Assembly: GCA_001799635.1 (NCBI GenBank)
Contig: MGTV01000038.1
Coordinates: forward strand, 2,376 to 66,375
Length of the DNA: 64,000 nt
Origin: Elusimicrobia bacterium GWA2_62_23
GTDB taxonomy: Bacteria > Elusimicrobiota > Elusimicrobia > Elusimicrobiales > UBA9959
Reading direction: 5' to 3'
The first letter of the stretch is position 1; each line of letters opens with the position of its first letter. A program made the position numbers and the translations under genes. Under the pieces are notes generated by a model that was given only the letters and a program-made list of their open reading frames with translations, ran no database searches and was not told the DNA's origin. Shown piece by piece: positions 864-61,155 of this stretch.

Positions 864-947
864 TGCCGGGACGGGGACTTGAACCCCGACGGGTGTTACC
901 CCACATGGTCCTAAGCCATGCGCGTCTGCCAATTCCGCCATCCCGAC
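864..947 (-). tRNA. tRNA-Leu (anticodon TAG), 84 nt with long variable arm
   Basis: Reverse complement is GTCGGGATGGCGGAATTGGCAGACGCGCATGGCTTAGGACCATGTGGGGTAACACCCGTCGGGGTTCAAGTCCCCGTCCCGGCA. It has a 7-bp acceptor stem, anticodon loop CTTAGGA, a GTTCAAG T-loop and a type-II variable arm. Confidence 0.9.
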
Positions 948-1069: not shown

Positions 1070-1141
1070 TGGGCCATACGGGATTCGAACCTGTAACCTT
1101 ACGCTTAAGAGGCGTCTGCTCTACCGTTGAGCTAATGGCCC
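1070..1141 (-). tRNA. tRNA-Lys (anticodon CTT), 72 nt
   Basis: Reverse complement is GGGCCATTAGCTCAACGGTAGAGCAGACGCCTCTTAAGCGTAAGGTTACAGGTTCGAATCCCGTATGGCCCA. The acceptor stem is GGGCCAT/ATGGCCC, the anticodon loop is CTCTTAA, and the T-loop is GGTTCGAATCC. Confidence 0.9.
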
Positions 1142-3276: not shown

Positions 3277-4422
3277 ATGGTAAAGGTCGCTCACCTGATC
3301 ACACGGCTGGACTTCGGCGGCGCCCAGGCCAACACACTTTACACAGTAGCCCGGCTGGACCGCGCCCGCTTCGACGCGCTGATCGTCGCCGGGCCGGGCG
3401 GCATCCTGGACTCCAGGGGCGAGCCGGGCCGCCTGCTGCACGCTTCCCTCCTGAGGCGCGAGATCTCTCCCGTAGGGGACCTGGCCGCCCTGCTGCAGCT
3501 GCGCGCCGTCCTCGCCGGCCTGAAGCCGGTCATCGTACACACCCATTCCTCCAAGGCCGGCATCCTGGGCCGCCTGGCCGCCGCCCTCGCCAAAAGCCCC
3601 GTGGTGGTCCATACTTTCCACGGCTTCGGTTTCCACCCGCTGCAGAACCCGCTCAAGAGGGGTTTCTTCGTCCTGCTGGAGAAGGTCTGCGCGCGCTTCA
3701 GCGACGCGCTGATCTTCGTTTCCAGGGCCAACATGGAGACCGCCAGGGCCGCCGGCATAGGCGACCCCGCAAAGTACCGGCTCATCCGCAGCGGCGTGAA
3801 GCTGGCCGGCTACCCGGCGAAGATAGACCGCGCCGCCGTGCGAGCGCGGCTGGGCCTGGCGCCGGACGACGTGGTGACCCTCAGCATCGGCAACGCCAAG
3901 CCCCAGAAGAACCCCGGCCACTTCCTGGAAGCCGCGGCCAGGATCGCCGCGCGCAGGCCCGGGGCCAGGTTCGTTTTCGTGGGAGGGGGAGAAGAGCTGC
4001 CGGCGTTGCGCGCCGAGGCGGCGGCCCGCGGACTTGAAAAGACCTGCCTGTTCCCCGGCTGGCGCGAGGACACGCCCGAACTGCTGGCGGCCTCGGATAT
4101 TTTCGCGCTGACCTCGCTGTGGGAAGGGCTGCCCCGAAGTTTGGTGGAAGCGCTCAAGACCGGCCTTCCCGCGGTCTGCTACCGCACTGACGGGGTGGCC
4201 GATTTGCTCAAGGACGGCGTGAACGGCTTCTGCGTGCCGCAGGGCGACCTGGACGCGTTCTGCTCCTCGCTCGAGAGCCTCGTGGCAGACACGGCCCTGC
4301 GCGCCCGCCTCGCCGCCGGGGCCGCCGCCGCCGACCTGGCGGAATTCGACATTGATTTCATGGTCAGGCAGCAGGAAGAACTTTACACCGAACTGCTCAG
4401 GCAGAAAGGATACGCCGGATGA
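3277..4422 (+). CDS. glycosyltransferase, GT4 (GT-B fold) family
   Basis: 381 aa. Shows the N-terminal motif HLITRLDFGGAQ, HTHSSKAG, and a C-terminal EGLPRSLVEAL EX7E-type motif. Confidence 0.8.
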   Translation: MVKVAHLITRLDFGGAQANTLYTVARLDRARFDALIVAGPGGILDSRGEPGRLLHASLLRREISPVGDLAALLQLRAVLAGLKPVIVHTHSSKAGILGRLAAALAKSPVVVHTFHGFGFHPLQNPLKRGFFVLLEKVCARFSDALIFVSRANMETARAAGIGDPAKYRLIRSGVKLAGYPAKIDRAAVRARLGLAPDDVVTLSIGNAKPQKNPGHFLEAAARIAARRPGARFVFVGGGEELPALRAEAAARGLEKTCLFPGWREDTPELLAASDIFALTSLWEGLPRSLVEALKTGLPAVCYRTDGVADLLKDGVNGFCVPQGDLDAFCSSLESLVADTALRARLAAGAAAADLAEFDIDFMVRQQEELYTELLRQKGYAG

Positions 4423-5372
4423 AACCTACCGTCTCCGCAGTGATCCCGGTCTTCAACGAGGCCGCCAGCCTCCCCGGCTTTGCCGCCGAACTGGAAGCGG
4501 GCCTGGCCCGCCTCAAGGTTCCGTTCGAGGTGATCTGGGTGGACGACGGCAGCACGGACGGCTCTTTCACCAAGCTCTCGGAACTGGCCGGGCGGCCCGG
4601 CCACAGGGCCCTGCGCCTCGCCAAGAACTACGGCCAGACCGCGGCGCTGGCAGCCGGCATCGCCGAGGCGGCGGGCGACTGGATAGTGACGCTGGACGCC
4701 GACGGGCAGAACGACCCCGAGGACATCCCCCGGCTCTTCGCGGCGGCCGCCGCCGGCACCGACGTGGTGAGCGGCTGGCGCAAGGCGCGCCAGGACGCTT
4801 TCTTCTCCCGCATCCTGCCGTCCAGGGCGGCGAACTTCGTGATATCCGCCGTTACCGGGGTCAAGCTCCACGACTTCGGCTGCACCCTCAAGGTTTACCG
4901 GGCCTCCCTTCTGAAAGCCGCGGACCTCTACGGGGAAATGCACCGTTTCCTCCCGGCGATACTGGCCTACGACGGGGCTTCTGTGTCGGAACTGGAGGTT
5001 AACCACAGGCCGCGTAAGGCCGGAGCCTCCAAATACGGGATAGCCCGCACCTTCAAAGTGGTGCTGGACCTCCTGACGGTAAAGTTCATGGGAGACTTCA
5101 TCACCAAACCCATTTACCTGTTCGGCGGCCTCAGCCTGGCCCTGCTCGCGGCCTCCGCCCTCATGGCCGGTTGGACTCTCTACAACAAGTTCTTCAACGC
5201 CATCTTCGTAAAGGACCAGCCGCTCTTCCTGGTGGCCATCTTCTTCGCCCTCGTGGCGGTGCAGTTCGCCTTCATGGGGCTCATCGCCGAGGTGCTGATC
5301 AGGACCTACCACAGCGCCAACCGCAGGCCCCCCTGGTCGGTGGCGGAACGGAAGGGCGGCCACGCCGCCTGA
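4419..5372 (+). CDS. polyprenyl-phosphate glycosyltransferase, GT2 family (GtrB/ArnC/DPM1-like)
   Basis: 317 aa. Motifs: VSAVIPVFNEA, VDDGSTDGS, TLDADGQNDPEDI, plus two C-terminal TM helices. Its start has a 4-nt overlap with the upstream GT4 gene. Confidence 0.8.
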   Translation: MKPTVSAVIPVFNEAASLPGFAAELEAGLARLKVPFEVIWVDDGSTDGSFTKLSELAGRPGHRALRLAKNYGQTAALAAGIAEAAGDWIVTLDADGQNDPEDIPRLFAAAAAGTDVVSGWRKARQDAFFSRILPSRAANFVISAVTGVKLHDFGCTLKVYRASLLKAADLYGEMHRFLPAILAYDGASVSELEVNHRPRKAGASKYGIARTFKVVLDLLTVKFMGDFITKPIYLFGGLSLALLAASALMAGWTLYNKFFNAIFVKDQPLFLVAIFFALVAVQFAFMGLIAEVLIRTYHSANRRPPWSVAERKGGHAA

Positions 5373-5422: not shown

Positions 5423-5926
5423 ATGCAGGAAAACGATCCCCTTGTTTTCAGGTACGCGGACATAAAGGCCGAAGGCGGGCGCAACGTCAAGCTGGCCCCG
5501 GCCCCGGCCGCCTACGCCGACGTTTTCGACTCCCCGGACACGCTCAAGAAGCTCCGCCTGGAGCTGGATTTCTCCGTCGGGGGGGACTCCATCCTGCTGG
5601 AAGGGCGCATATACGCGGAACTCGAGCTTATCTGCGCCCGCTGCGGCGATCCCCTGGCCCGCGCTTTTGAGGACTCTTTTGACGAGGTGTATCCGGATTC
5701 GCTAGAATATATAGATGCGCGCGAATTAATAAGGGAGACCGTGGCCCTGGTCGCGCCTATAAAGGTCCTGTGTTCGGACGCCTGCAAGGGCCGCTGCCTG
5801 GTCTGCGGCGTCAACCGCAACAGCAAGACCTGCGGATGCAGGACCGACAAGGCCAGCCCGTTCTCGGCCCTGAAAGACCTGGACCTGAAGACCCCGGGAA
5901 AGCCCGGCAAGAAGAATTCGAAGTAA
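5423..5926 (+). CDS. yceD: DUF177/YceD family protein
   Basis: 167 aa with a C-terminal Cys cluster (CARCGD ... CSDACKGRCLVCGVNRNSKTCGC). It sits in the conserved position immediately upstream of rpmF. Confidence 0.75.
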   Translation: MQENDPLVFRYADIKAEGGRNVKLAPAPAAYADVFDSPDTLKKLRLELDFSVGGDSILLEGRIYAELELICARCGDPLARAFEDSFDEVYPDSLEYIDARELIRETVALVAPIKVLCSDACKGRCLVCGVNRNSKTCGCRTDKASPFSALKDLDLKTPGKPGKKNSK

Positions 5927-5943
5927 AACAATGAGGTGCTACT

Positions 5944-6156
5944 ATGCCGAATCCTAAACGTAAACATTCCCCGATGCGCCGTGACAAGCGCCGCGCCCAG
6001 AACTGGAAGCTCGAGGTGAAGTCCCTGTCCTCCTGCGGCCAGTGCGGCGCGCTCCGCCTGCCCCACCGCGTCTGCCCGTCCTGCGGCTCCTACAACGGCA
6101 AGATAGAAGTCGCCCCCAAGGCCGCCAAAGGCGAAGAGGGCAAGGATCAGAAATAA
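5944..6156 (+). CDS. rpmF: 50S ribosomal protein L32
   Basis: 70 aa: MPNPKRKHSPMRRDKRRAQ ... CGQCGALRLPHRVCPSCGSY (zinc-ribbon form). Confidence 0.9.
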   Translation: MPNPKRKHSPMRRDKRRAQNWKLEVKSLSSCGQCGALRLPHRVCPSCGSYNGKIEVAPKAAKGEEGKDQK

Positions 6157-6168
6157 GCCGGGGCAAGC

Positions 6169-7197
6169 ATGCGAATAGCGCTTGACGCCCACGGCGGCGA
6201 CTTCGGCCTGAAGCCCAATATCGAGGGGGCTCTGCTCGCGGCCAAAAAGCTGCGGCATGAGATTATCCTCGTAGGCCGGGACCCCGAGATCCGGGAGGAG
6301 CTGCGCCGCCTCGGCGCGGAAGACCCGGAACGCATCAGCATAGTCCACGCCCCGCAGCTGGTGGAGATGTCGGCCGAGCCGGTGGAAGAGTGCCGCGCCA
6401 AGCCCGACTCCTCGCTGATGGTCGCGGCCGGCCTGGTGCACGAGGGAAAAGCCGACGCGTTCGTTTCGGCGGGTAATTCCGGGGCCATCATGGTGGCCGC
6501 GCTCCTCAAGATGAAGCGTATCCCCGGCGTTATACGCCCCGCCATAGCCGCCCCGCTGCCCACCTACAAGGGCACTTCGGTACTGCTCGACGCGGGCGCC
6601 AACATGGACTGCAAGCCCTGGCACCTGGCCCAGTTCGCGGTCATGGGGTCCGTATACATGAAGTCCCTGTTCCGGATAGAGAACCCCACGGTAGGCCTCC
6701 TCTCCATAGGCGAAGAGGAAACCAAGGGCAATTCTCTGGTGCAGGAAACCCTGCCGCTCATAAAGAACATGGGCGTCAATTTTTACGGCCCGGTGGAAGG
6801 CCGAGATATCCCAGACGGCCTGACCGACGTGGTCGTGGCCGACGGTTTCACCGGCAACGTGGCGCTGAAGCTTTACGAGGGCACGGCCAAGACGGTCTTC
6901 CGGATGCTGAAAGACCAGATCATGGGCAAGTTCACCTACAAGATCGGAGCCATGCTGATGAGCAAGCTTTTCAGGGAAATGAAGACCAAGATGAGCGTGG
7001 ACGTTTACGGCGGCGCCCCGCTGCTGGGCGTGAACGGCGTGGTGATAGTCTGCCACGGCAAGATAACCCCCAACGCGGTCTTCAACGCCCTGCGCGTCAG
7101 CGGCGAACTGGCCGCGGCGGGCATGGTCTCCCATATCCGCAAGCAGATGGAGCAGGTGAAGGACCGCATCGCCGAGGCCAAGGAGGCCGAAGCTTGA
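6169..7197 (+). CDS. plsX: phosphate acyltransferase PlsX
   Basis: 342 aa: MRIALDAHGGD..., SAGNSGA, VVADGFTGNVALK. Canonical rpmF-plsX synteny. Confidence 0.9.
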   Translation: MRIALDAHGGDFGLKPNIEGALLAAKKLRHEIILVGRDPEIREELRRLGAEDPERISIVHAPQLVEMSAEPVEECRAKPDSSLMVAAGLVHEGKADAFVSAGNSGAIMVAALLKMKRIPGVIRPAIAAPLPTYKGTSVLLDAGANMDCKPWHLAQFAVMGSVYMKSLFRIENPTVGLLSIGEEETKGNSLVQETLPLIKNMGVNFYGPVEGRDIPDGLTDVVVADGFTGNVALKLYEGTAKTVFRMLKDQIMGKFTYKIGAMLMSKLFREMKTKMSVDVYGGAPLLGVNGVVIVCHGKITPNAVFNALRVSGELAAAGMVSHIRKQMEQVKDRIAEAKEAEA

Positions 7198-7940
7198 AAC
7201 GCCTCGAGGGGAAAGCCGCCATCGTGACCGGCGCCGCCCGCGGCATAGGCCTGGAAATCGCCATGGCCTTCGCGGCCGAAGGCGCCTCCGTGGCTGTGGC
7301 CGATCTCGACGGGGCCGATTCCACCGCCGCCGCCGAGGCGATAACCGCCAGGACCGGCGCGAAGACCCTGGGCCTGGGGCTGGACGTTTCCAAAGAGGCC
7401 GACTGCGACCGCGCCATCGAGGATACCGCCAAAGCCTTCGGCAAAGTGGACATCCTCGTGAACAACGCCGGCATCACCAAGGACAATCTGGTGCTCCGGA
7501 TGAAGGCGGAGGATTTCGACTCGGTCATCAGCGTGAACCTCAAAGGGTCGTTCCTGATGGCCAAGGCGGCCTCCCGGCTGATGCTCAAAGCCCGGACAGG
7601 GCGCATCATAAACATTTCCTCGGTGGTAGGGCAGAGCGGGCAGGCGGGGCAGGCCAACTATTCGGCCTCCAAGGCCGGCCTGATAGGCCTCACCAAGTCG
7701 CTCGCGCGCGAGTTCGCGCCGCGGCAGGTGCTGGTGAACGCGGTGGCGCCGGGCTTCATCCGCACGCGCATGACCGAGGGCCTCAAGGACGAGGCCAAAG
7801 CCAAGATCTCAGAGATGATACCGCTGGGCCGCATGGGCGAGCCCGGCGAGGTGGCGAAAGCGGCGCTGTTCCTGGCCGGAGAAGATTCCGCCTACATCAC
7901 GGGCCAGGTGCTGGCCGTGAACGGCGGGCTCTACATGTGA
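7194..7940 (+). CDS. fabG: 3-oxoacyl-ACP reductase
   Basis: 248 aa SDR with TGAARGIG, NNAG and YSASKAG motifs. Located between plsX and acpP. Confidence 0.9.
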   Translation: MKRLEGKAAIVTGAARGIGLEIAMAFAAEGASVAVADLDGADSTAAAEAITARTGAKTLGLGLDVSKEADCDRAIEDTAKAFGKVDILVNNAGITKDNLVLRMKAEDFDSVISVNLKGSFLMAKAASRLMLKARTGRIINISSVVGQSGQAGQANYSASKAGLIGLTKSLAREFAPRQVLVNAVAPGFIRTRMTEGLKDEAKAKISEMIPLGRMGEPGEVAKAALFLAGEDSAYITGQVLAVNGGLYM

Positions 7941-24668: not shown

Positions 24669-26074
24669 CCCCCGAAATACTGGACTTCACCGCCAATTCC
24701 GCGGCCCTGCCGCTCATGCTGCTCATCGCTGGGCTGCTGATCCTGCTGCTGCCGCTGTTCGTCCGGCGGCTGAACGGAGCGCAGGGGTTCATAGCCGCGG
24801 GCGCGCTCATAGCCATGGCCTTCTTTTTCCGGCGCCCGCCGGCGGCCGAGGTGGCCCTCTTCAACGGCGCCCTGGTGCTGAACCCGCTGTCCGCTTATCT
24901 CTGGGCTTTCGCCACGGCCGCCCTGGGGCTGGTGGTGCTGCTCTCGCTGGCGCGGCAGGCCGCGCCCGACGAAAGCCAGGGGGAATACTATTTCCTTCTG
25001 TTCATGGCCGCGATCGGGCTCATGGTCCTGGTGGCGGCCGGGGACCTGTTCACCGCCTTCATCGCGCTGGAACTCCTGAGCCTGCCGGTCTACGCCCTGG
25101 CGGGCATACGCCGGTCCAAGCCCGGCCTGGAGGCCGCCTATAAATATTTCATGCTGGGGGCTTTCGGCTCGGGCATGACGGTGCTGGGCATCGCCGTGCT
25201 GAACGCGCTCTACCCGGCGCTCTCTTTCGCCGCGCTCAAGGCCGGCCCCGCCTCGCCGCTGGCCCTGGCCGGCTTCCTGCTGGTGATCTCCGGCTTCGCT
25301 TTCAAGACGGCCCTGGTGCCGTTCCACATGTGGGTGCCCGACGCTTACGAAGGCGCCCCCACGCCGGTGGCGGCCTTCATGGGCGCCGCGGTAAAGGCCG
25401 GCGGCGTGATAGTGCTGTGGCGGCTCTTCCACCTGTTCGACGGCGGCCCGGTGATAAGGATCTTCTGGTGGCTGGCCGCGATAACCGTGACTTTCGCCAA
25501 CCTGGCGGCGCTCGCGCAGAGCGGGCTCAAGCGCCTGCTGGCCTACTCCTCGGTGGCCCACGCTGGCTACCTGGCGGTGGCTTTCTTCGGCGGGCGCCAG
25601 GGCGCGGAAGCGGTGCTGTACTACCTGCCTGTTTACGCCATGGCCACCATAGGCGCTTTCGCGGTGGCGGCGGCGCTGGAGACGGACGAGAAGGGCCCCC
25701 GGATAGAGGACCTGGCGGGCCTGGCCAAGGCCAGGCCGTGGCTGGCGGGCGCCATGGCCGCCTTCATGTTCTCGCTGGCTGGCGTGCCGCCGCTGGCGGG
25801 TTTCTTCGCTAAATTTTACGCTTTCGCCGGGGCGGTCAATTCAGGCTACACCGGCCTTGTCGTCCTGGCCGTGATAATGAGCGCGGTGAGCATGTACTAC
25901 TATCTGAAGGTCACGGTGGTGATGTACATGAAGCCGGCTGCCTCGGAGCAGGTTTATGAGGCCCCCGGTTTGGCCGAAGCGGTCATAGCCCTTATGGCCG
26001 CGGGCGTGCTGCTCGCCGGCGTCTTCTCCAAACCCCTGCTCGCCATCGCCTCCAACGCCGCAAGATACTTCTAG
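24665..26074 (+). CDS. nuoN: NADH-quinone oxidoreductase subunit N
   Basis: 469 aa: FKTALVPFHMWVPDAYEGAPTPV. Last gene of the operon. Confidence 0.9.
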   Translation: MTPEILDFTANSAALPLMLLIAGLLILLLPLFVRRLNGAQGFIAAGALIAMAFFFRRPPAAEVALFNGALVLNPLSAYLWAFATAALGLVVLLSLARQAAPDESQGEYYFLLFMAAIGLMVLVAAGDLFTAFIALELLSLPVYALAGIRRSKPGLEAAYKYFMLGAFGSGMTVLGIAVLNALYPALSFAALKAGPASPLALAGFLLVISGFAFKTALVPFHMWVPDAYEGAPTPVAAFMGAAVKAGGVIVLWRLFHLFDGGPVIRIFWWLAAITVTFANLAALAQSGLKRLLAYSSVAHAGYLAVAFFGGRQGAEAVLYYLPVYAMATIGAFAVAAALETDEKGPRIEDLAGLAKARPWLAGAMAAFMFSLAGVPPLAGFFAKFYAFAGAVNSGYTGLVVLAVIMSAVSMYYYLKVTVVMYMKPAASEQVYEAPGLAEAVIALMAAGVLLAGVFSKPLLAIASNAARYF

Positions 26075-26087
26075 CACACGGCGGGAC

Positions 26088-26202
26088 GGCCAAGGGGCTG
26101 TTCCGCTCGCCATGACTGCAGGGAACCGTTGCGCGGTTCCCCTCAATCGCTGCGCGATTGAGCCTCCTCTCCCCAAATGGCGCTCGGAACAGCCCCTTGG
26201 CC
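26088..26202 (+). repeat. structured intergenic repeat, family A copy 1 (18-bp closing stem plus two internal hairpins)
   Basis: GGCCAAGGGGCTGTTCCG (26088-26105) pairs perfectly with CGGAACAGCCCCTTGGCC (26185-26202). Internal hairpins are GGGAACCG-ttgcg-CGGTTCCC (26121-26141) and CAATCGC-tgc-GCGATTG (26144-26160). It lies between the convergent nuoN and ribE genes, so it probably also acts as a bidirectional terminator. Confidence 0.7.
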
Positions 26203-26228
26203 ATCCCTTAGCGCTCAAGCAGTAAAGG

Positions 26229-29648: not shown

Positions 29649-29689
29649 ATATGACGCGATAACAGGCGGTGCCGGTTAAGGGTCCATAA

Positions 29690-29799
29690 GTTCTTCTTTC
29701 ATCCGGACTTTACCGTCGGCTCCGGAATCGGACCGGATCTGCTCCTGGGAGCTTGCGGGCTTTACCGCCGGTGGGGAATCGCGCCCCGCCCTGAAGAAC
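29690..29799 (-). promoter_or_regulatory. FMN riboswitch (RFN element) aptamer
   Basis: The minus strand reads GTTCTTCAGGGCGGGGCGCGATTCCCCACCGGCGGTAAAGCCCGCAAGC...GATCCGGTCCGATTCCGGAGCCGACGGTAAAGTCCGGATGAAAGAAGAAC. All conserved RFN blocks are present and P1 is closed (GTTCTTC/GAAGAAC). It lies upstream of ribBA. Confidence 0.92.
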
Positions 29800-29808
29800 T
29801 ACAGGGAT

Positions 29809-37701: not shown

Positions 37702-39015
37702 ATGAAGCTTTTCCACAAGTTCAGCGCGGCGCTCACGGCCGCGGCCCTGGCCGCGGCTTTGCTGCTGAGCGGCATCTTCCTCAAGTTCCAGGAGCGCACC
37801 GTGCTCCGGGCGCAGCAGGCGCGGCTGCAGGCCATGGAACAGTCCGTGCTGGCCATGCTCGGCGAGGCCGAGCTGGCGGGCGACCCCCTGATGGCGGTGG
37901 ATTATCTTTCCGGCCTCTGTTTTTCAAGGCCGGAGATCCGCTCCTGCCGGTTGGACATCGGCCGGGGCATGGCCCCGGTGAAACTCCCCAAGGTCAAAGT
38001 TCCCGCACGCTCCGACGTTCCTCTTTCCAGGCGGCTGAGCGGCAAAAAGTACCGCGCGGAGCTGGATTTTTCGGCCGCGGCCCTGGACCGGGAGCGCAAG
38101 GAGGCCCTCTCCGGGGTCTGGCGAAACCTGGCCGCCGCTTTCCTGGCGGCCATGGCCGTGGCGGCCCTGCTCGCCCTGCTGCTGGCGCGCCGGCTCACCA
38201 GGCGCCTGCGGCGCCTCTCGGCCGAAGCGGCGGCGCTGGGAGAGGGGAAGTTCGGGGTAAAGACCGAAGTCTCCGGCTCGGACGAGGTGGCGGAGCTGGC
38301 GGGGGCCTTCAACGCCATGTCCGAGCGTCTGCTGGAACTGGAGACCATGAAGAAGAATTTCACGGCCTCGGTCACGCACGAACTGCGCTCGCCGCTGGGC
38401 GTCATAGAGACCTACGCCGCCATGCTCATCAAGGAAGAGGACCGCTTCACCCCCGACGATATTTCCGTCTTCAGGCGCATAAAGGAGAACGCCGGGCGCC
38501 TGGCCAATTTCGTCACGGCCATGCTGGACCTGGCCAAGATAGAGCGCGGCAAGATGGAACTGCGCCCGGCGAAAGAAGACCCCCTGGCGCTGGTCAGGGA
38601 CGCGGTTGATTTCCTCAAGCCGAAAGCCGACGAAAAAAACGTAGCCCTGGCCGCCCTGACCCCGCCGGGCCCGGCCGCGGCGACGCTCGACCGGGAGCTC
38701 GTGACCCACGCGCTCACCAATCTCATTTCCAACGCCATAAAATTCACGCCCGAAGGCGGCAAGGTCTTTGTGCGCGCCTCGCTCACCCAAAAAGTCCTCC
38801 GCGTGGAAGTGGAGGACACCGGCCCCGGCGTGAAACCCGGAGAAGCCGAAAAGATCTTTACCCCGTATTCCCAGGGCTCGGCGGCCCCCGGCCACGGCGG
38901 CACCGGCCTCGGCCTGGCGCTGTCCAAGGCCATCATAGAGCTGCACAAAGGCCGCATAGGCTGCGGCGCCGCCCCTGGCGGCGGCGCCCTCTTCTGGTTC
39001 GAGCTGCCGGTGTGA
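37702..39015 (+). CDS. membrane sensor histidine kinase (2 TM, HAMP, HisKA, HATPase_c)
   Basis: 437 aa. H-box FTASVTHELRSPLGVI, N-box LISNAIKFTPEGG, G-boxes EDTGPGV / GGTGLGLA. Confidence 0.85.
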   Translation: MKLFHKFSAALTAAALAAALLLSGIFLKFQERTVLRAQQARLQAMEQSVLAMLGEAELAGDPLMAVDYLSGLCFSRPEIRSCRLDIGRGMAPVKLPKVKVPARSDVPLSRRLSGKKYRAELDFSAAALDRERKEALSGVWRNLAAAFLAAMAVAALLALLLARRLTRRLRRLSAEAAALGEGKFGVKTEVSGSDEVAELAGAFNAMSERLLELETMKKNFTASVTHELRSPLGVIETYAAMLIKEEDRFTPDDISVFRRIKENAGRLANFVTAMLDLAKIERGKMELRPAKEDPLALVRDAVDFLKPKADEKNVALAALTPPGPAAATLDRELVTHALTNLISNAIKFTPEGGKVFVRASLTQKVLRVEVEDTGPGVKPGEAEKIFTPYSQGSAAPGHGGTGLGLALSKAIIELHKGRIGCGAAPGGGALFWFELPV

Positions 39016-39029
39016 CGAAGAGGGGCGAC

Positions 39030-39145
39030 GGGGGTATGGGTTCGGAGGGGCGTCGCGGAGGCCGAGGCTTGCGCAAGCGACGAGGCCGAGCGACGAGCGG
39101 CGAGAACGGTGTTCGAGACCGCGTACCCGACGGGCCCATACCCCC
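39030..39145 (+). repeat. structured intergenic repeat, family B copy 1
   Basis: Closing stem GGGGGTATGGG (39030-39040) / CCCATACCCCC (39135-39145). The core CGGAGGCCGAGGCTTGCGCAAGCGACGAGGCCGAG is shared with the element at 58288-58414 in the opposite orientation. Confidence 0.65.
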
Positions 39146-39220
39146 GGCGCACCGACACCCGATATACACCGGCCTGTAATAACTTTGTAACGTGCTTTAT
39201 ATAGAATAAGAGTACGGATT

Positions 39221-51031: not shown

Positions 51032-51120
51032 TGGGGAAGGGGGGCCCCGCCATAATTTCCCCAGGCGGGGGGGAACCGCGCAACGGTCCCCTGCAGTCCT
51101 GGCGAGCGGAGCAGAGCCCC
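51032..51120 (-). repeat. structured intergenic repeat, family A copy 2 (inverted orientation, diverged or partial)
   Basis: The reverse complement GGGGCTCTGCTCCGCTCGCCAGGACTGCAGGGGACCGTTGCGCGGTTCCCC matches 26094-26142 (GGGGCTGTTCCGCTCGCCATGACTGCAGGGAACCGTTGCGCGGTTCCCC) apart from a 2-nt indel and two substitutions. Confidence 0.65.
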
Positions 51121-56246: not shown

Positions 56247-56319
56247 GGCACCGTAGCTCAGGGGTTAGAGCGGGCGTTTCATAAGCGCTAGGTCGGAGGT
56301 TCGAGACCTCCCGGTGCCA
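56247..56319 (+). tRNA. tRNA-Met (anticodon CAT; elongator-type G1-C72), 73 nt, no encoded CCA
   Basis: GGCACCGTAGCTCAGGGGTTAGAGCGGGCGTTTCATAAGCGCTAGGTCGGAGGTTCGAGACCTCCCGGTGCCA. Anticodon loop TTCATAA. A lysidine-modified tRNA-Ile2 cannot be excluded. Confidence 0.88.
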
Positions 56320-56937: not shown

Positions 56938-58278
56938 ATGGCATTCTGGGGAAACAAGCAGGAAGGGGAGAGCGCCCAGCCCGGGCAGCAGGCCCCCACG
57001 CAGGTTACCGGCACGCTCGAGGACGGCTATAACGACATCGTAAAATCCAAGGGCCGCGCCCCCGGCATAGACCTCGCCATAAAGCTCAGCGACCTCATCC
57101 TCGAACACGCCGTGCACGAACGCGCCAGCGACGTTCACATAGAGTCCCAGGGCGCCAACCTGCGGGTCCGCTTCCGCGTGGACGGCATCCTGCAGGACAT
57201 GCTCAATTCCCCCAAGAACGCGGATATCCCGCTCACCCAGCGCATCCGCGTGCTGGCGGGCTTCGACCCCGAACCCCCGACGTCCTTCCGCAACGAGGAA
57301 GGCCGCTTCCAGAAGATGCTCTCCGGCCGCGCGATCCAGGTGCGCGTGTCCTCCTTCCCTACCGTCAACGGCGAGAAGCTGGTGCTGCGCGTGCTGGACC
57401 GCCAGCAGCTCGGCCTCGACATAGACCAGGTCGGCCTGGACCAGGACGCCCTGACCATCATAAAGAAGCTCATCCGCAACCCTTACGGCATTTTCTTCAT
57501 CACCGGCTCCACCGGCTCCGGCAAGACCACGTCGCTCTACGCGATGCTCAAGAACATCAATACCCCGATGATCAACATCATCACGCTGGAAGACCCCGTC
57601 GAATACCGCCTGGAGGGCATCAACCAGGCCCAGATCAGCGCCAAGACCGGCTTCACCTGGTCCGAAGGCCTGCGCACCATCCTGCGCCAGGACCCCGACG
57701 TCATCATGGTGGGCGAGATCCGCGACTACGACACCGCCGAGATCAGCCTGCGCTCGGCCCTCACCGGCCACCTGCTGTTCACCACCATCCACACCATCAA
57801 CGCCCCCAGCATCATCGAGCGCCTCTTCGAGATGGGCGTGCCGCCGTTCCTCATCGGCTCCTCCATGCTGGGCGCCATGAGCCAGCGGCTCGTGCGCAAG
57901 GTCTGCCCCAAGTGCTGCCAGGGCGCCGCCGCGCCGTCGGAACCCGTGGTCAACGAATTCATAAAGAACATGGACCCCGAGGAAGGGAAAGTGGTGAAGG
58001 ACCTCATCCTCGCCCCGGGCGCCAACTACAAGGTGGAGAAAGGCTGCCCCGAATGCCGCAGCACCGGCTACATGGGTCGAACCGGCATTTTCGAACTGAT
58101 GCTCATGAACGAGGAGATCCGCAAACACATCCTCGACCACGCCCCCACCGACGTGATCAAGCGCACGGCCATCAAGAGCGGCAAGATGCGCACGCTGCTC
58201 ATGGACGGCATCATGAAGGCCCGCACCGGCGTCACCACCCTCTCCGAGATCATCCGCGTCACCGCGACGATGGTGTGA
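56938..58278 (+). CDS. GspE/PilB-family secretion ATPase (short, no N-terminal MshEN/GSPII domains)
   Basis: 446 aa. Walker A GSTGSGKTTS, Asp box, Walker B DPDVIMVGEIRD, His box, tetracysteine CPKC...CPEC. Confidence 0.85.
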   Translation: MAFWGNKQEGESAQPGQQAPTQVTGTLEDGYNDIVKSKGRAPGIDLAIKLSDLILEHAVHERASDVHIESQGANLRVRFRVDGILQDMLNSPKNADIPLTQRIRVLAGFDPEPPTSFRNEEGRFQKMLSGRAIQVRVSSFPTVNGEKLVLRVLDRQQLGLDIDQVGLDQDALTIIKKLIRNPYGIFFITGSTGSGKTTSLYAMLKNINTPMINIITLEDPVEYRLEGINQAQISAKTGFTWSEGLRTILRQDPDVIMVGEIRDYDTAEISLRSALTGHLLFTTIHTINAPSIIERLFEMGVPPFLIGSSMLGAMSQRLVRKVCPKCCQGAAAPSEPVVNEFIKNMDPEEGKVVKDLILAPGANYKVEKGCPECRSTGYMGRTGIFELMLMNEEIRKHILDHAPTDVIKRTAIKSGKMRTLLMDGIMKARTGVTTLSEIIRVTATMV

Positions 58279-58287
58279 GGTTCCGGC

Positions 58288-58414
58288 CTTACGCGGACGG
58301 TGGGACATCAAAAACAGCGTCGCGCACACCGTGCGCGCGCTTCCGGCTCTCGGCCTCGGCGCTTACGTAAGCCTCGGCCTCCGAGGCGGTTTTGCTGCCC
58401 ACCGTCCGCGTAAG
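58288..58414 (-). repeat. structured intergenic repeat, family B copy 2 (17-bp closing stem)
   Basis: CTTACGCGGACGGTGGG (58288-58304) pairs perfectly with CCCACCGTCCGCGTAAG (58398-58414). The reverse-complemented core CGGAGGCCGAGGCTTACGTAAGCGCCGAGGCCGAG differs from the 39-kb copy at 3 of 35 positions. Two of those three differences are compensatory within the palindrome. Confidence 0.7.
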
Positions 58415-58429
58415 ACCTCCACGGGATCA

Positions 58430-61073: not shown

Positions 61074-61155
61074 GGGGTCAGGTCTTGATTTTTAGCATCC
61101 TGTGCATCTTAACAGGTGGGAATCAGGCAGATGCTAAAAATCAAGACCTGACCCC
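61074..61155. repeat. 82-bp element with 26-bp perfect terminal inverted repeats (MITE-like or bidirectional terminator)
   Basis: GGGGTCAGGTCTTGATTTTTAGCATC (61074-61099) and GATGCTAAAAATCAAGACCTGACCCC (61130-61155), with a 30-nt loop. It is AT-rich relative to its surroundings. The right arm encodes the last four codons and the stop codon of ribF. Confidence 0.75.

Follow-up and report, generated by a model that had tools for sequence, protein, structure and literature searches.

When intergenic segments of one genome share an elaborate potential fold and stand ahead of different genes, it can be asked whether the fold serves those genes or the segments themselves. This question is raised by a 64,000-nucleotide stretch of Elusimicrobia bacterium GWA2_62_23 (contig MGTV01000038.1, positions 2,376 to 66,375; the whole stretch is hereafter called the window), in which one such segment, copy 1 (39021-39155, + strand), precedes a FliG-like gene and another, copy 2 (58284-58417, - strand), precedes an aspartokinase gene. 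These limits are those of a covariance model and are slightly wider than the ones given in a preliminary description of the window, which attributed the shared architecture to selection on a fold rather than to a miniature inverted-repeat transposable element (MITE). Both segments proved instead to be complete members of a high-copy interspersed repeat family, here called Family B, that is multi-copy, intergenic after stop codons and present in either orientation, and whose copies are gained, replaced and degraded at orthologous sites. It is probable that the family is non-autonomous mobile DNA of the repetitive extragenic palindromic (REP)/REPIN/MITE-like kind, with units of ~135 nt that are non-coding and imperfectly palindromic and whose fold is needed for propagation.

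A family of covarying Y-shaped repeats

The extent of the family was defined by a pattern scan and by a covariance model. The scan, which used one genome per species and the pattern GAGGCCGAGGC-N8-GC-NN-CGAGGCCGAG, returned at least 118 loci. At least 36 of these have the TT.C..AA centre (the exact core), all in Elusimicrobia, Elusimicrobiales or Elusimicrobiaceae metagenome-assembled genomes (MAGs) or in unlabelled bins, and at least nine matches come from a single MAG. The other 82 of the matches listed are chance occurrences in high-GC genomes, where mostly only the ~32-nt core fits the model and none scores above 32 bits. The model, R1, was built from 32 complete copies and a structure written by hand that comprises 134 positions and 50 pairs, and it recognized 51 copies with E <1e-11 in 372 kb of Elusimicrobia loci (about 20 MAGs; individual loci are given below by numbers prefixed L). 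Eleven of the 51 do not have the exact core and are therefore free of search-pattern bias. The median element length is 136 nt, and a scan of the window with R1 found no copy beyond the two already known. Contig ends truncate six true copies, and strain-level contigs from the window organism also stop inside copy 1, as commonly happens with repeats on which assemblies break.

The same Y shape is predicted in every copy: an outer stem, P1, of 22-30 bp closes a three-way junction from which two hairpins, unrelated to each other in sequence, extend. Irregularities recur in P1: TGACG/CGGCA includes an A.G mismatch, subtype 1 has a G.A mismatch, and subtype 2 has a 4x3 internal loop. Hairpin A has a basal stem of 5-7 bp (CGUCAC/GUGACG and variants), an unpaired GGA, a middle helix of 4-6 bp that is usually GGCC/GGCC, an internal loop and an apical GCUU-NNNN-AAGC. 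Hairpin B reads GGCG-CGCGC-AC-GGU-GU-GCGCG-A-CGCC, with a bulged A and an invariant ACGGUGU apex; at the DNA level this ACGGTGT centre is AC-GGT-GT, that is, two closing pairs around a 3-nt loop. The loops GCUU-NNNN-AAGC and C-ACGGUGU-G and the flanking GGAG/CGAG are conserved in sequence. The central ~95 nt hardly vary, and the terminal 12-16 bp differ from locus to locus. Subtype 1, to which copy 1 belongs, has arms of the form GGGTATGGG...GGGCCG, and subtype 2, which includes copy 2, has arms of the form CCGG-NTNA-GCAAAAC...GTTTTGC-GTT-CCGG.

A small module, GTGGAGCGAA(G/C)CGACA..., recurs at varied places within Family B copies. In the L134 copy (2804-2989) it is present twice, where two insertions of ~28 nt replace each half of the GGCC helix; L052 (159-315) has it once, in hairpin B, and hairpin B of L087 (5894-6046) has a related insertion. 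This looks like modular expansion of the hairpin tips.

The preliminary description had seen covarying stems in two copies, and this observation held when many copies were compared. Covariation was measured on the R1 alignment (52 distinct rows) against 500 column shuffles and against controls in which pairing partners were slid by 1-3 columns. Standard pairs fill 91.4% of cells, compared with 68.3% (sd 0.6) after shuffling and 36-45% after sliding; changes on both sides are found in 45 of the 50 base pairs, compared with 31.5 and 21-28, respectively; and the covariation score is 0.426, compared with 0.109 for shuffled and at most 0.077 for slid partners. No shuffle among the 500 matched any of the observed values. 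An alignment fitted to R1 leans these figures towards the structure, and the margin is nonetheless very large.

All parts of the fold contribute to this signal. In the outer helix every one of the 18 pairs changed on both sides and 89.6% of cells pair, in the hairpin B helix 8 of 11 pairs did so, and the basal stem and GGCC helix of hairpin A covary across the family. In copies recovered independently of the pattern, GGCC/GGCC is replaced by GGCAU/AUGCC, GCCCU/AGGGC, GCCUUU/AAAGGC, GCCCGC/GCGGGC, GCCGGC/GCCGGC or GGCCC/GGGCC. A role of the direct repeat GAGGCCGAG as a tandem binding site was therefore rejected: both of its halves are swapped complementarily in these copies, and the direct repeat is a by-product of a self-complementary GGCC helix. 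When RNAalifold was applied to a MAFFT alignment, double changes were seen in 11 of the 23 pairs predicted for the two hairpins, and the outer stem was not recovered because subtypes 1 and 2 differ by 1 nt in register, a problem that was solved by the hand-written structure and the covariance model. The complementarity of the arms is a property of each locus: the 5' arm of a copy aligns with its own 3' arm with a median Smith-Waterman score of 36.5, whereas the median against arms of other copies is 14 (95th percentile 24).

No counterpart was found in Rfam or among viral and plasmid sequences. At the gathering thresholds of Rfam 15, the whole window yields only an FMN riboswitch and three tRNAs, with neither repeat copy matched, and permissive scans of both loci gave only chance matches of the miRNA-hairpin type, at 11-20 bits against cut-offs of 43-168. 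The family has 0 matches in IMG/VR viral contigs and nothing with E <0.1 in PLSDB plasmids, and a literature search combining Elusimicrobia with 'repetitive extragenic palindromic' found no description of it. The family is previously uncatalogued and specific to GC-rich Elusimicrobia.

The two copies in the window

The 35-nt cores on which the preliminary description was based are present where it placed them, CGGAGGCCGAGGCTTGCGCAAGCGACGAGGCCGAG at 39056-39090 (+) in copy 1 and CGGAGGCCGAGGCTTACGTAAGCGCCGAGGCCGAG at 58349-58383 (-) in copy 2, and they differ at 3 positions. A degenerate 33-nt version, GAGGCCGAGGCTTNCGNAAGCGNCGAGGCCGAG, has exactly two matches in the window (39058-39090, +, and 58349-58381, -), against an expectation of 0.00, with no match in 100 dinucleotide shuffles of the window. 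Two of the three differences had been read as compensatory changes within a 12-nt palindrome. This reading was rejected, as they sit in the apical loop of GCUU-NNNN-AAGC, whose 4 nt are sterically prevented from pairing and where the family has variable tetramers (GCGU, GCGC, ACGU, GCAU); the central octamer has the non-palindromic family consensus TTGCGTAA, and the window octamers TTGCGCAA and TTACGTAA each depart from it by a single change.

Copy 1 is a complete element of subtype 1, without a T-run, and matches R1 over model positions 1-134 (111.2 bits, E 4e-26). Its P1 5' arm, GGGGCGACGGGGGTATGGGTTCGGAGGG (39022-39049), and 3' arm (39124-39153), delimited by the fold and by alignment of each arm to the reverse complement of the other, form 22 Watson-Crick and 2 T.G pairs with 4 mismatches, which include the family-conserved A.G at GACG/CGGC. 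Hairpin A (39051-39095) is predicted to have the basal stem CGTCG/CGACG, the GGCC/GGCC helix and the apical GCTT-GCGC-AAGC, and hairpin B (39097-39122), assigned from the predicted fold and family covariation, reads GCGGCGAGAAC-GGT-GTTCGAGACCGC with the family-conserved ACGGTGT apex. Copy 2, a complete element of subtype 2 (AAAAC...GTTTT around the two hairpins; 121.2 bits, E 1e-28), has its P1 5' arm, GGTCTTACGCGGACGGTGGGCAGCAAAA as read on the - strand, at 58390-58417 and its 3' arm at 58285-58315, which together form 26 Watson-Crick pairs and 1 T.G pair with 1 mismatch and 1 gap. Its hairpin A (58343-58389) contains the 33-nt core, and its hairpin B, predicted at 58316-58341, reads AGCGCGCGCAC-GGT-GTGCGCG-A-CGCT. 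The predicted fold energies are -79.4 kcal/mol for copy 1 (z -6.2 against shuffles) and -88.1 kcal/mol for copy 2 (z -8.0); the complements of both form mirror-image folds that are somewhat less stable.

The ACGGTGT hairpins with different stems (GAAC/GTTC and GCGCAC/GTGCGC) and the perfect closing stems of 11 bp in copy 1 (GGGGGTATGGG/CCCATACCCCC) and 17 bp in copy 2 (CTTACGCGGACGGTGGG/CCCACCGTCCGCGTAAG) are likewise present. The closing stems had been called unrelated in sequence; comparison across the family identifies them as diverged forms of one ancestral arm, GG..(T)GACG..GGG.., and the copy 1 stem runs past its 11 bp through the conserved A.G mismatch (GCGACGGGGGTATGGG/CCCATACCCCCGGCGC).

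Copy 1 begins 5 nt past the stop codon (39013-39015) of a histidine-kinase gene with HAMP, HisKA and HATPase domains and ends 65 nt ahead of the FliG-like gene (start 39221). Copy 2 occupies the whole gap between the stop of a T2SSE-type ATPase gene (58276-58278) and the aspartokinase start (58430) and is antisense to both. The downstream genes carry FliG_C and AA_kinase domains, in agreement with the neighbours first proposed, and the FliG-like protein shows 100% identity to a protein of Elusimicrobia bacterium GWA2_62_23. All four flanking genes are on the + strand, yet the two copies are oppositely oriented. The other structured RNAs of the window are the FMN riboswitch at 29687-29802 (-), which scores 114.6 bits against a gathering score of 66.2, and tRNA genes at 864-947 (-), 1070-1141 (-) and 56247-56319 (+).

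Genomic position and turnover at orthologous sites

Across the family, 41 of 43 copies lie outside open reading frames (ORFs) called by a heuristic based on GC content at third codon positions (GC3), and elements usually start 1-26 nt past a stop codon. In 18 cases the neighbouring genes are co-directional and the element is antisense to them, and in 7 they are co-directional and the element is sense; a further 8 elements have convergent and 3 have divergent neighbours. Three adjacent pairs, in L114, L135 and L020, are all head-to-head. The L135 pair, at 5689-5821 (-) and 5921-6051 (+), stands in the orthologue of a window region (61074-61155) that instead contains a hairpin whose 26-bp stem is perfect and whose loop region spans 30 nt (-54.9 kcal/mol, z -10.5) between convergent amidohydrolase and FAD-synthetase genes. 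In L020 (3560-7961), copies at 7174-7306, 4585-4717 and 4345-4477 lie between - strand genes for a LolA-like protein, an ABC ATPase and two FtsX/MacB permeases, which look like a single operon for a Lol-type ABC transporter, so elements are tolerated inside probable operons. The genes between clustered copies in L020 and L024 have housekeeping functions (ABC-transporter, LolA-like, Hdr-like, TusA and sigma-factor).

Flanking direct repeats are not in excess, with a mean longest common boundary word of 4.19 compared with 4.05 for mismatched left and right flanks; target-site duplications were not seen by eye at the inspected copies either, and no conserved target motif was seen beside copies. 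The many genomic copies that the preliminary description had named as a sign of a MITE were found, without the conserved termini and target-site duplications it had named with them; the termini are variable.

The preliminary description also implied a tie between the elements and the FliG-like and aspartokinase genes, which is not borne out: orthologous sites often have no element. At the aspartokinase locus, where GreA - T2SSE - aspartokinase synteny is conserved, the element is present only in the window and in L134 and absent at 14 orthologous sites. In L133, L135 and L136, with aspartokinases that share 87, 74 and 72% identity with the one in the window, the intergenic region is 57-62 nt long and holds a plain terminator-like hairpin (GCCCGGCC-loop-GGCCGGGC) followed by a T-run. 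Eleven further metagenome orthologues are all without the element, and nearly all have a similar hairpin and T-run; L153 has a short hairpin only, without a T-run. Insertion into the loop of a pre-existing terminator was considered as the source of the locus-specific arms and rejected, as the terminator at occupied sites is absent rather than split and the arms have a common degenerate family consensus.

The aspartokinase of L134 is 76% identical to that of the window, and its copy matches copy 2 in orientation and outside flanks, with almost identical inner parts and a perfect 17-bp stem in each. Occupancy of this site does not track identity: the 87% relative (L133) is empty and the 76% relative (L134) is occupied, with flanks in common with the window. 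This mismatch points to independent gain at the same spot or to recombination in the region.

Turnover is also evident at the site ahead of the FliG-like gene. A full subtype 1 copy is found there in the window, whereas L139 and L140 (83% identical) have no repeat, and the kinase stop overlaps a conserved promoter-like block. In L137 (89%) the 5' part of a subtype 1 copy is cut at ...GGCT and followed by a complete subtype 2-like copy, in L142 (90%) the copy is in reverse orientation, and in L138 (88%) and L141 (97%) the site holds a segment of a different repeat, Family A. Elements here have been gained, replaced and degraded within short time scales, which is not how a conserved cis-regulator behaves; the position and orientation that a cis-regulatory leader or riboswitch-like element keeps upstream of orthologues are not kept here.

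Two observations concern this site and the repeat found there. The block TAATAACTTTGTAAC..GCTT.ATATAGAATA (window 39173-39205), which ends ~15-20 nt before the FliG-like start codon, is kept in all of the relatives L137-L142, whether or not repeats are inserted, and is probably the promoter of the FliG-like gene. Family A itself is represented in the window at 26070-26219, with a partial inverted copy at 51070-51114; it is unrelated to Family B in sequence and has the same architecture, with an outer stem of ~24 bp closing two internal hairpins (-86.7 kcal/mol, z -8.6).

Explanations for the conserved fold

REPINs are doublets of REP sequences that form hairpins and are mobilized by RAYT tyrosine transposases, and compensatory changes across the hairpin are common in them (Bertels and Rainey, 2011; PMC3116915). 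Like Family B, they are hairpin-forming, non-coding extragenic repeats of ~100 nt, present in tens to hundreds of copies that include clusters and inverted pairs and persist vertically within a clade, and an alternative 'clover' fold with two small hairpins, proposed for their recognition, adds to the likeness. Family B shares with REPINs the many extragenic copies and a hairpin unit with compensatory changes in its arms. In contrast to REPINs, it does not have inverted conserved REP copies at its ends around a less conserved spacer, its inner hairpins are not inverted copies of each other, and it has no conserved head sequence of the REP type.

Other interspersed elements share some of these properties. 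The ERIC/IRU, YPAL and Correia/NEMIS repeats of enterobacteria and neisseriae and the RIME repeats of rhizobia are, like Family B, long imperfect palindromes of 100-170 nt that lie between genes, near gene ends and in either orientation. These repeats can be co-transcribed with their neighbours and affect termination or mRNA stability. They have no sequence similarity to Family B, whose covarying three-way-junction core is much more elaborate than that of ERIC, Correia or RIME-type repeats, and neither the conserved terminal inverted repeats nor the TA duplications of Correia-type elements are seen in Family B. Palindrome-associated elements derived from IS200/IS605 (PATEs) and other substrates of Y1 HUH transposases resemble the family in having no target-site duplication and imperfect hairpins with conserved irregularities; they are recognized as single-stranded DNA, and an orientation bias through the replication strand is expected. 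Unlike Family B, PATEs lack a long inverted repeat over their whole length, and the hairpins at their left and right ends are distinct; no conserved tetra- or pentanucleotide target is found beside Family B copies, for which a link to such an enzyme is a proposal. Integron attC sites are also imperfect palindromes (57-141 nt) that fold as single strands, with conserved mismatches and variable stems; Family B has no R''/R' boxes (RYYYAAC/GTTRRRY) and is not arrayed between cassettes in one orientation, its copies instead being isolated between syntenic housekeeping genes.

A structure-dependent mobile repeat could give rise to the pattern observed. The fold itself would be what is propagated, and the helices may be kept by paired changes because only correctly folded copies are recognized and copied. 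The likeliest agent would be a structure-specific enzyme that acts on single-stranded DNA hairpins, such as a RAYT or an IS200/IS605-type Y1 (HUH) transposase, and a Y1-type mechanism would leave no target-site duplication. As a possible side effect, subtype 2 could stand in for a displaced intrinsic terminator. Copy 2 and subtype 2 have weak terminator-like sites, each a GC-rich hairpin with a short T-run after it, on both strands (GGTTTTGCTG and ACGCTGTTTT), and from its sequence subtype 2 looks like a bidirectional terminator; it may therefore replace a terminator that was lost, which would make insertion after stop codons tolerable.

Several observations weigh against a mobile repeat of this kind. 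In REPINs the ends (REP 16-mers) are conserved and the spacer is variable, whereas Family B varies in its arms, even among copies from one MAG, and hardly at all in its centre. There is no transposase among the genes beside the clustered copies of L020 and L024, subtype 1, including copy 1, has no T-run, and the orientations and gene contexts given above were assigned from heuristic ORF calls. When copies are read in the GAGG orientation, there are 49 cells of the G.U type and 29 of the A.C type (binomial p 0.03), a weak bias in cells that are not independent, with most of the excess in hairpin A of a few subfamilies. The best argument for a role at the level of the host comes from the aspartokinase site, where 5 substitutions and 1 indel separate the outer stem of copy 2 from that of the L134 copy, each of them mirrored in the opposite arm. 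If these two copies are truly orthologous, pairing has been maintained in place, which would point to a function at the level of the host or correction of one arm by the other and not purely selfish turnover; the pair could also be explained by replacement with another copy, as in L137.

Some of the same observations would be expected if Family B were a host-selected RNA element, such as a portable bidirectional terminator, a 3'-end stabilizer, a protein-binding module of 3' untranslated regions or a source of small RNAs, under purifying selection at each locus. Strong covariation in all helices together with conserved loop and junction nucleotides, the position of copies just past stop codons, the presence of the element where relatives hold an ordinary terminator at the aspartokinase site, the hairpins and T-runs of subtype 2 on both strands, and the perfect 17-bp stems of the window and L134 copies within common flanks despite six differences are all consistent with such a role. 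The GAGG strand is also 6-15 kcal/mol more stable than its complement, to which the mild G.U excess can be added. We nevertheless consider this explanation unlikely. Copies occur in mixed orientation, and in about 70% of the co-directional ones the neighbouring genes and their mRNA are antisense to the more stable, G.U-rich strand; no promoter-like site was found near either window copy, and flanks are not conserved between copies. In addition, close relatives have no element or a different repeat at the same sites, copies lie inside the likely Lol-like ABC-transporter operon of L020, and subtype 1 has no T-run at all. Assignment of a strand from G.U and A.C mismatches was dropped, given a weak bias that few subfamilies dominate, and the mild strand asymmetry therefore fits a strand-specific single-stranded DNA substrate or founder inheritance at least as well as it fits a transcript.

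A broader proposal, to which we would also give a low probability, is that the three-way junction is the recognition module of an undescribed Elusimicrobia system for propagation or maintenance, one that handles several sequence-unrelated families of Y-shaped elements, Family A among them, and that these elements have been co-opted as portable, orientation-independent terminators whose arm pairing is maintained in place. The handler in such a system could be a new structure-specific nuclease or transposase that acts on single strands, or a host factor.

It seems less probable still that Family B is a double-stranded DNA or cruciform site for a nucleoid, gyrase or recombination protein of the host, as has been proposed for the bacterial interspersed mosaic elements (BIMEs) of enterobacteria, so that palindromy rather than RNA is what matters. 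The occurrence of both orientations, the mirror-image structures formed by both strands, the long near-perfect inverted repeats that could extrude as cruciforms and the head-to-head pairs in convergent intergenic regions (L114, L135 and L020) would all suit such a site. However, the inner hairpins are unrelated and the conserved mismatches asymmetric, features that fit recognition of a single strand better than that of a symmetric duplex, and turnover at orthologous sites speaks against a positional role in the host.

Finally, a classical MITE mobilized by a DDE transposase through terminal inverted repeats and target-site duplication, for example a Tn3-derived inverted-repeat miniature element (TIME) with degenerate 38-bp repeats, is very improbable: arms that often start with GGGG, include TGACG and extend over ~38-40 nt do resemble by eye the Tn3 inverted repeat GGGGTCTGACGCTCAGTGGAACGAAAACTCACGTTAAG (a sequence confirmed in the plasmid collection), but 117 of 500 shuffled repeats reach the observed mean alignment score and 334 of 500 the best one, neither an excess of flanking direct repeats nor a 5-bp duplication was seen, and conservation within the element is lowest at the termini, which have only a loose GG..(T)GACG..GGG theme in common.

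It is important to point out that these results provide a well-supported family of structured repeats for an under-studied and largely uncultured phylum, account for assembly breaks in Elusimicrobia MAGs, and caution against annotating hairpins of this type as regulators of particular genes. Family B combines numerous copies and strong covariation with orthologous sites that are empty or replaced, which makes it a clean data set for analyzing how the fold of selfish hairpin repeats is preserved. Should a dedicated enzyme or a role in termination be demonstrated, the REPIN/RAYT paradigm would be extended beyond the Proteobacteria.

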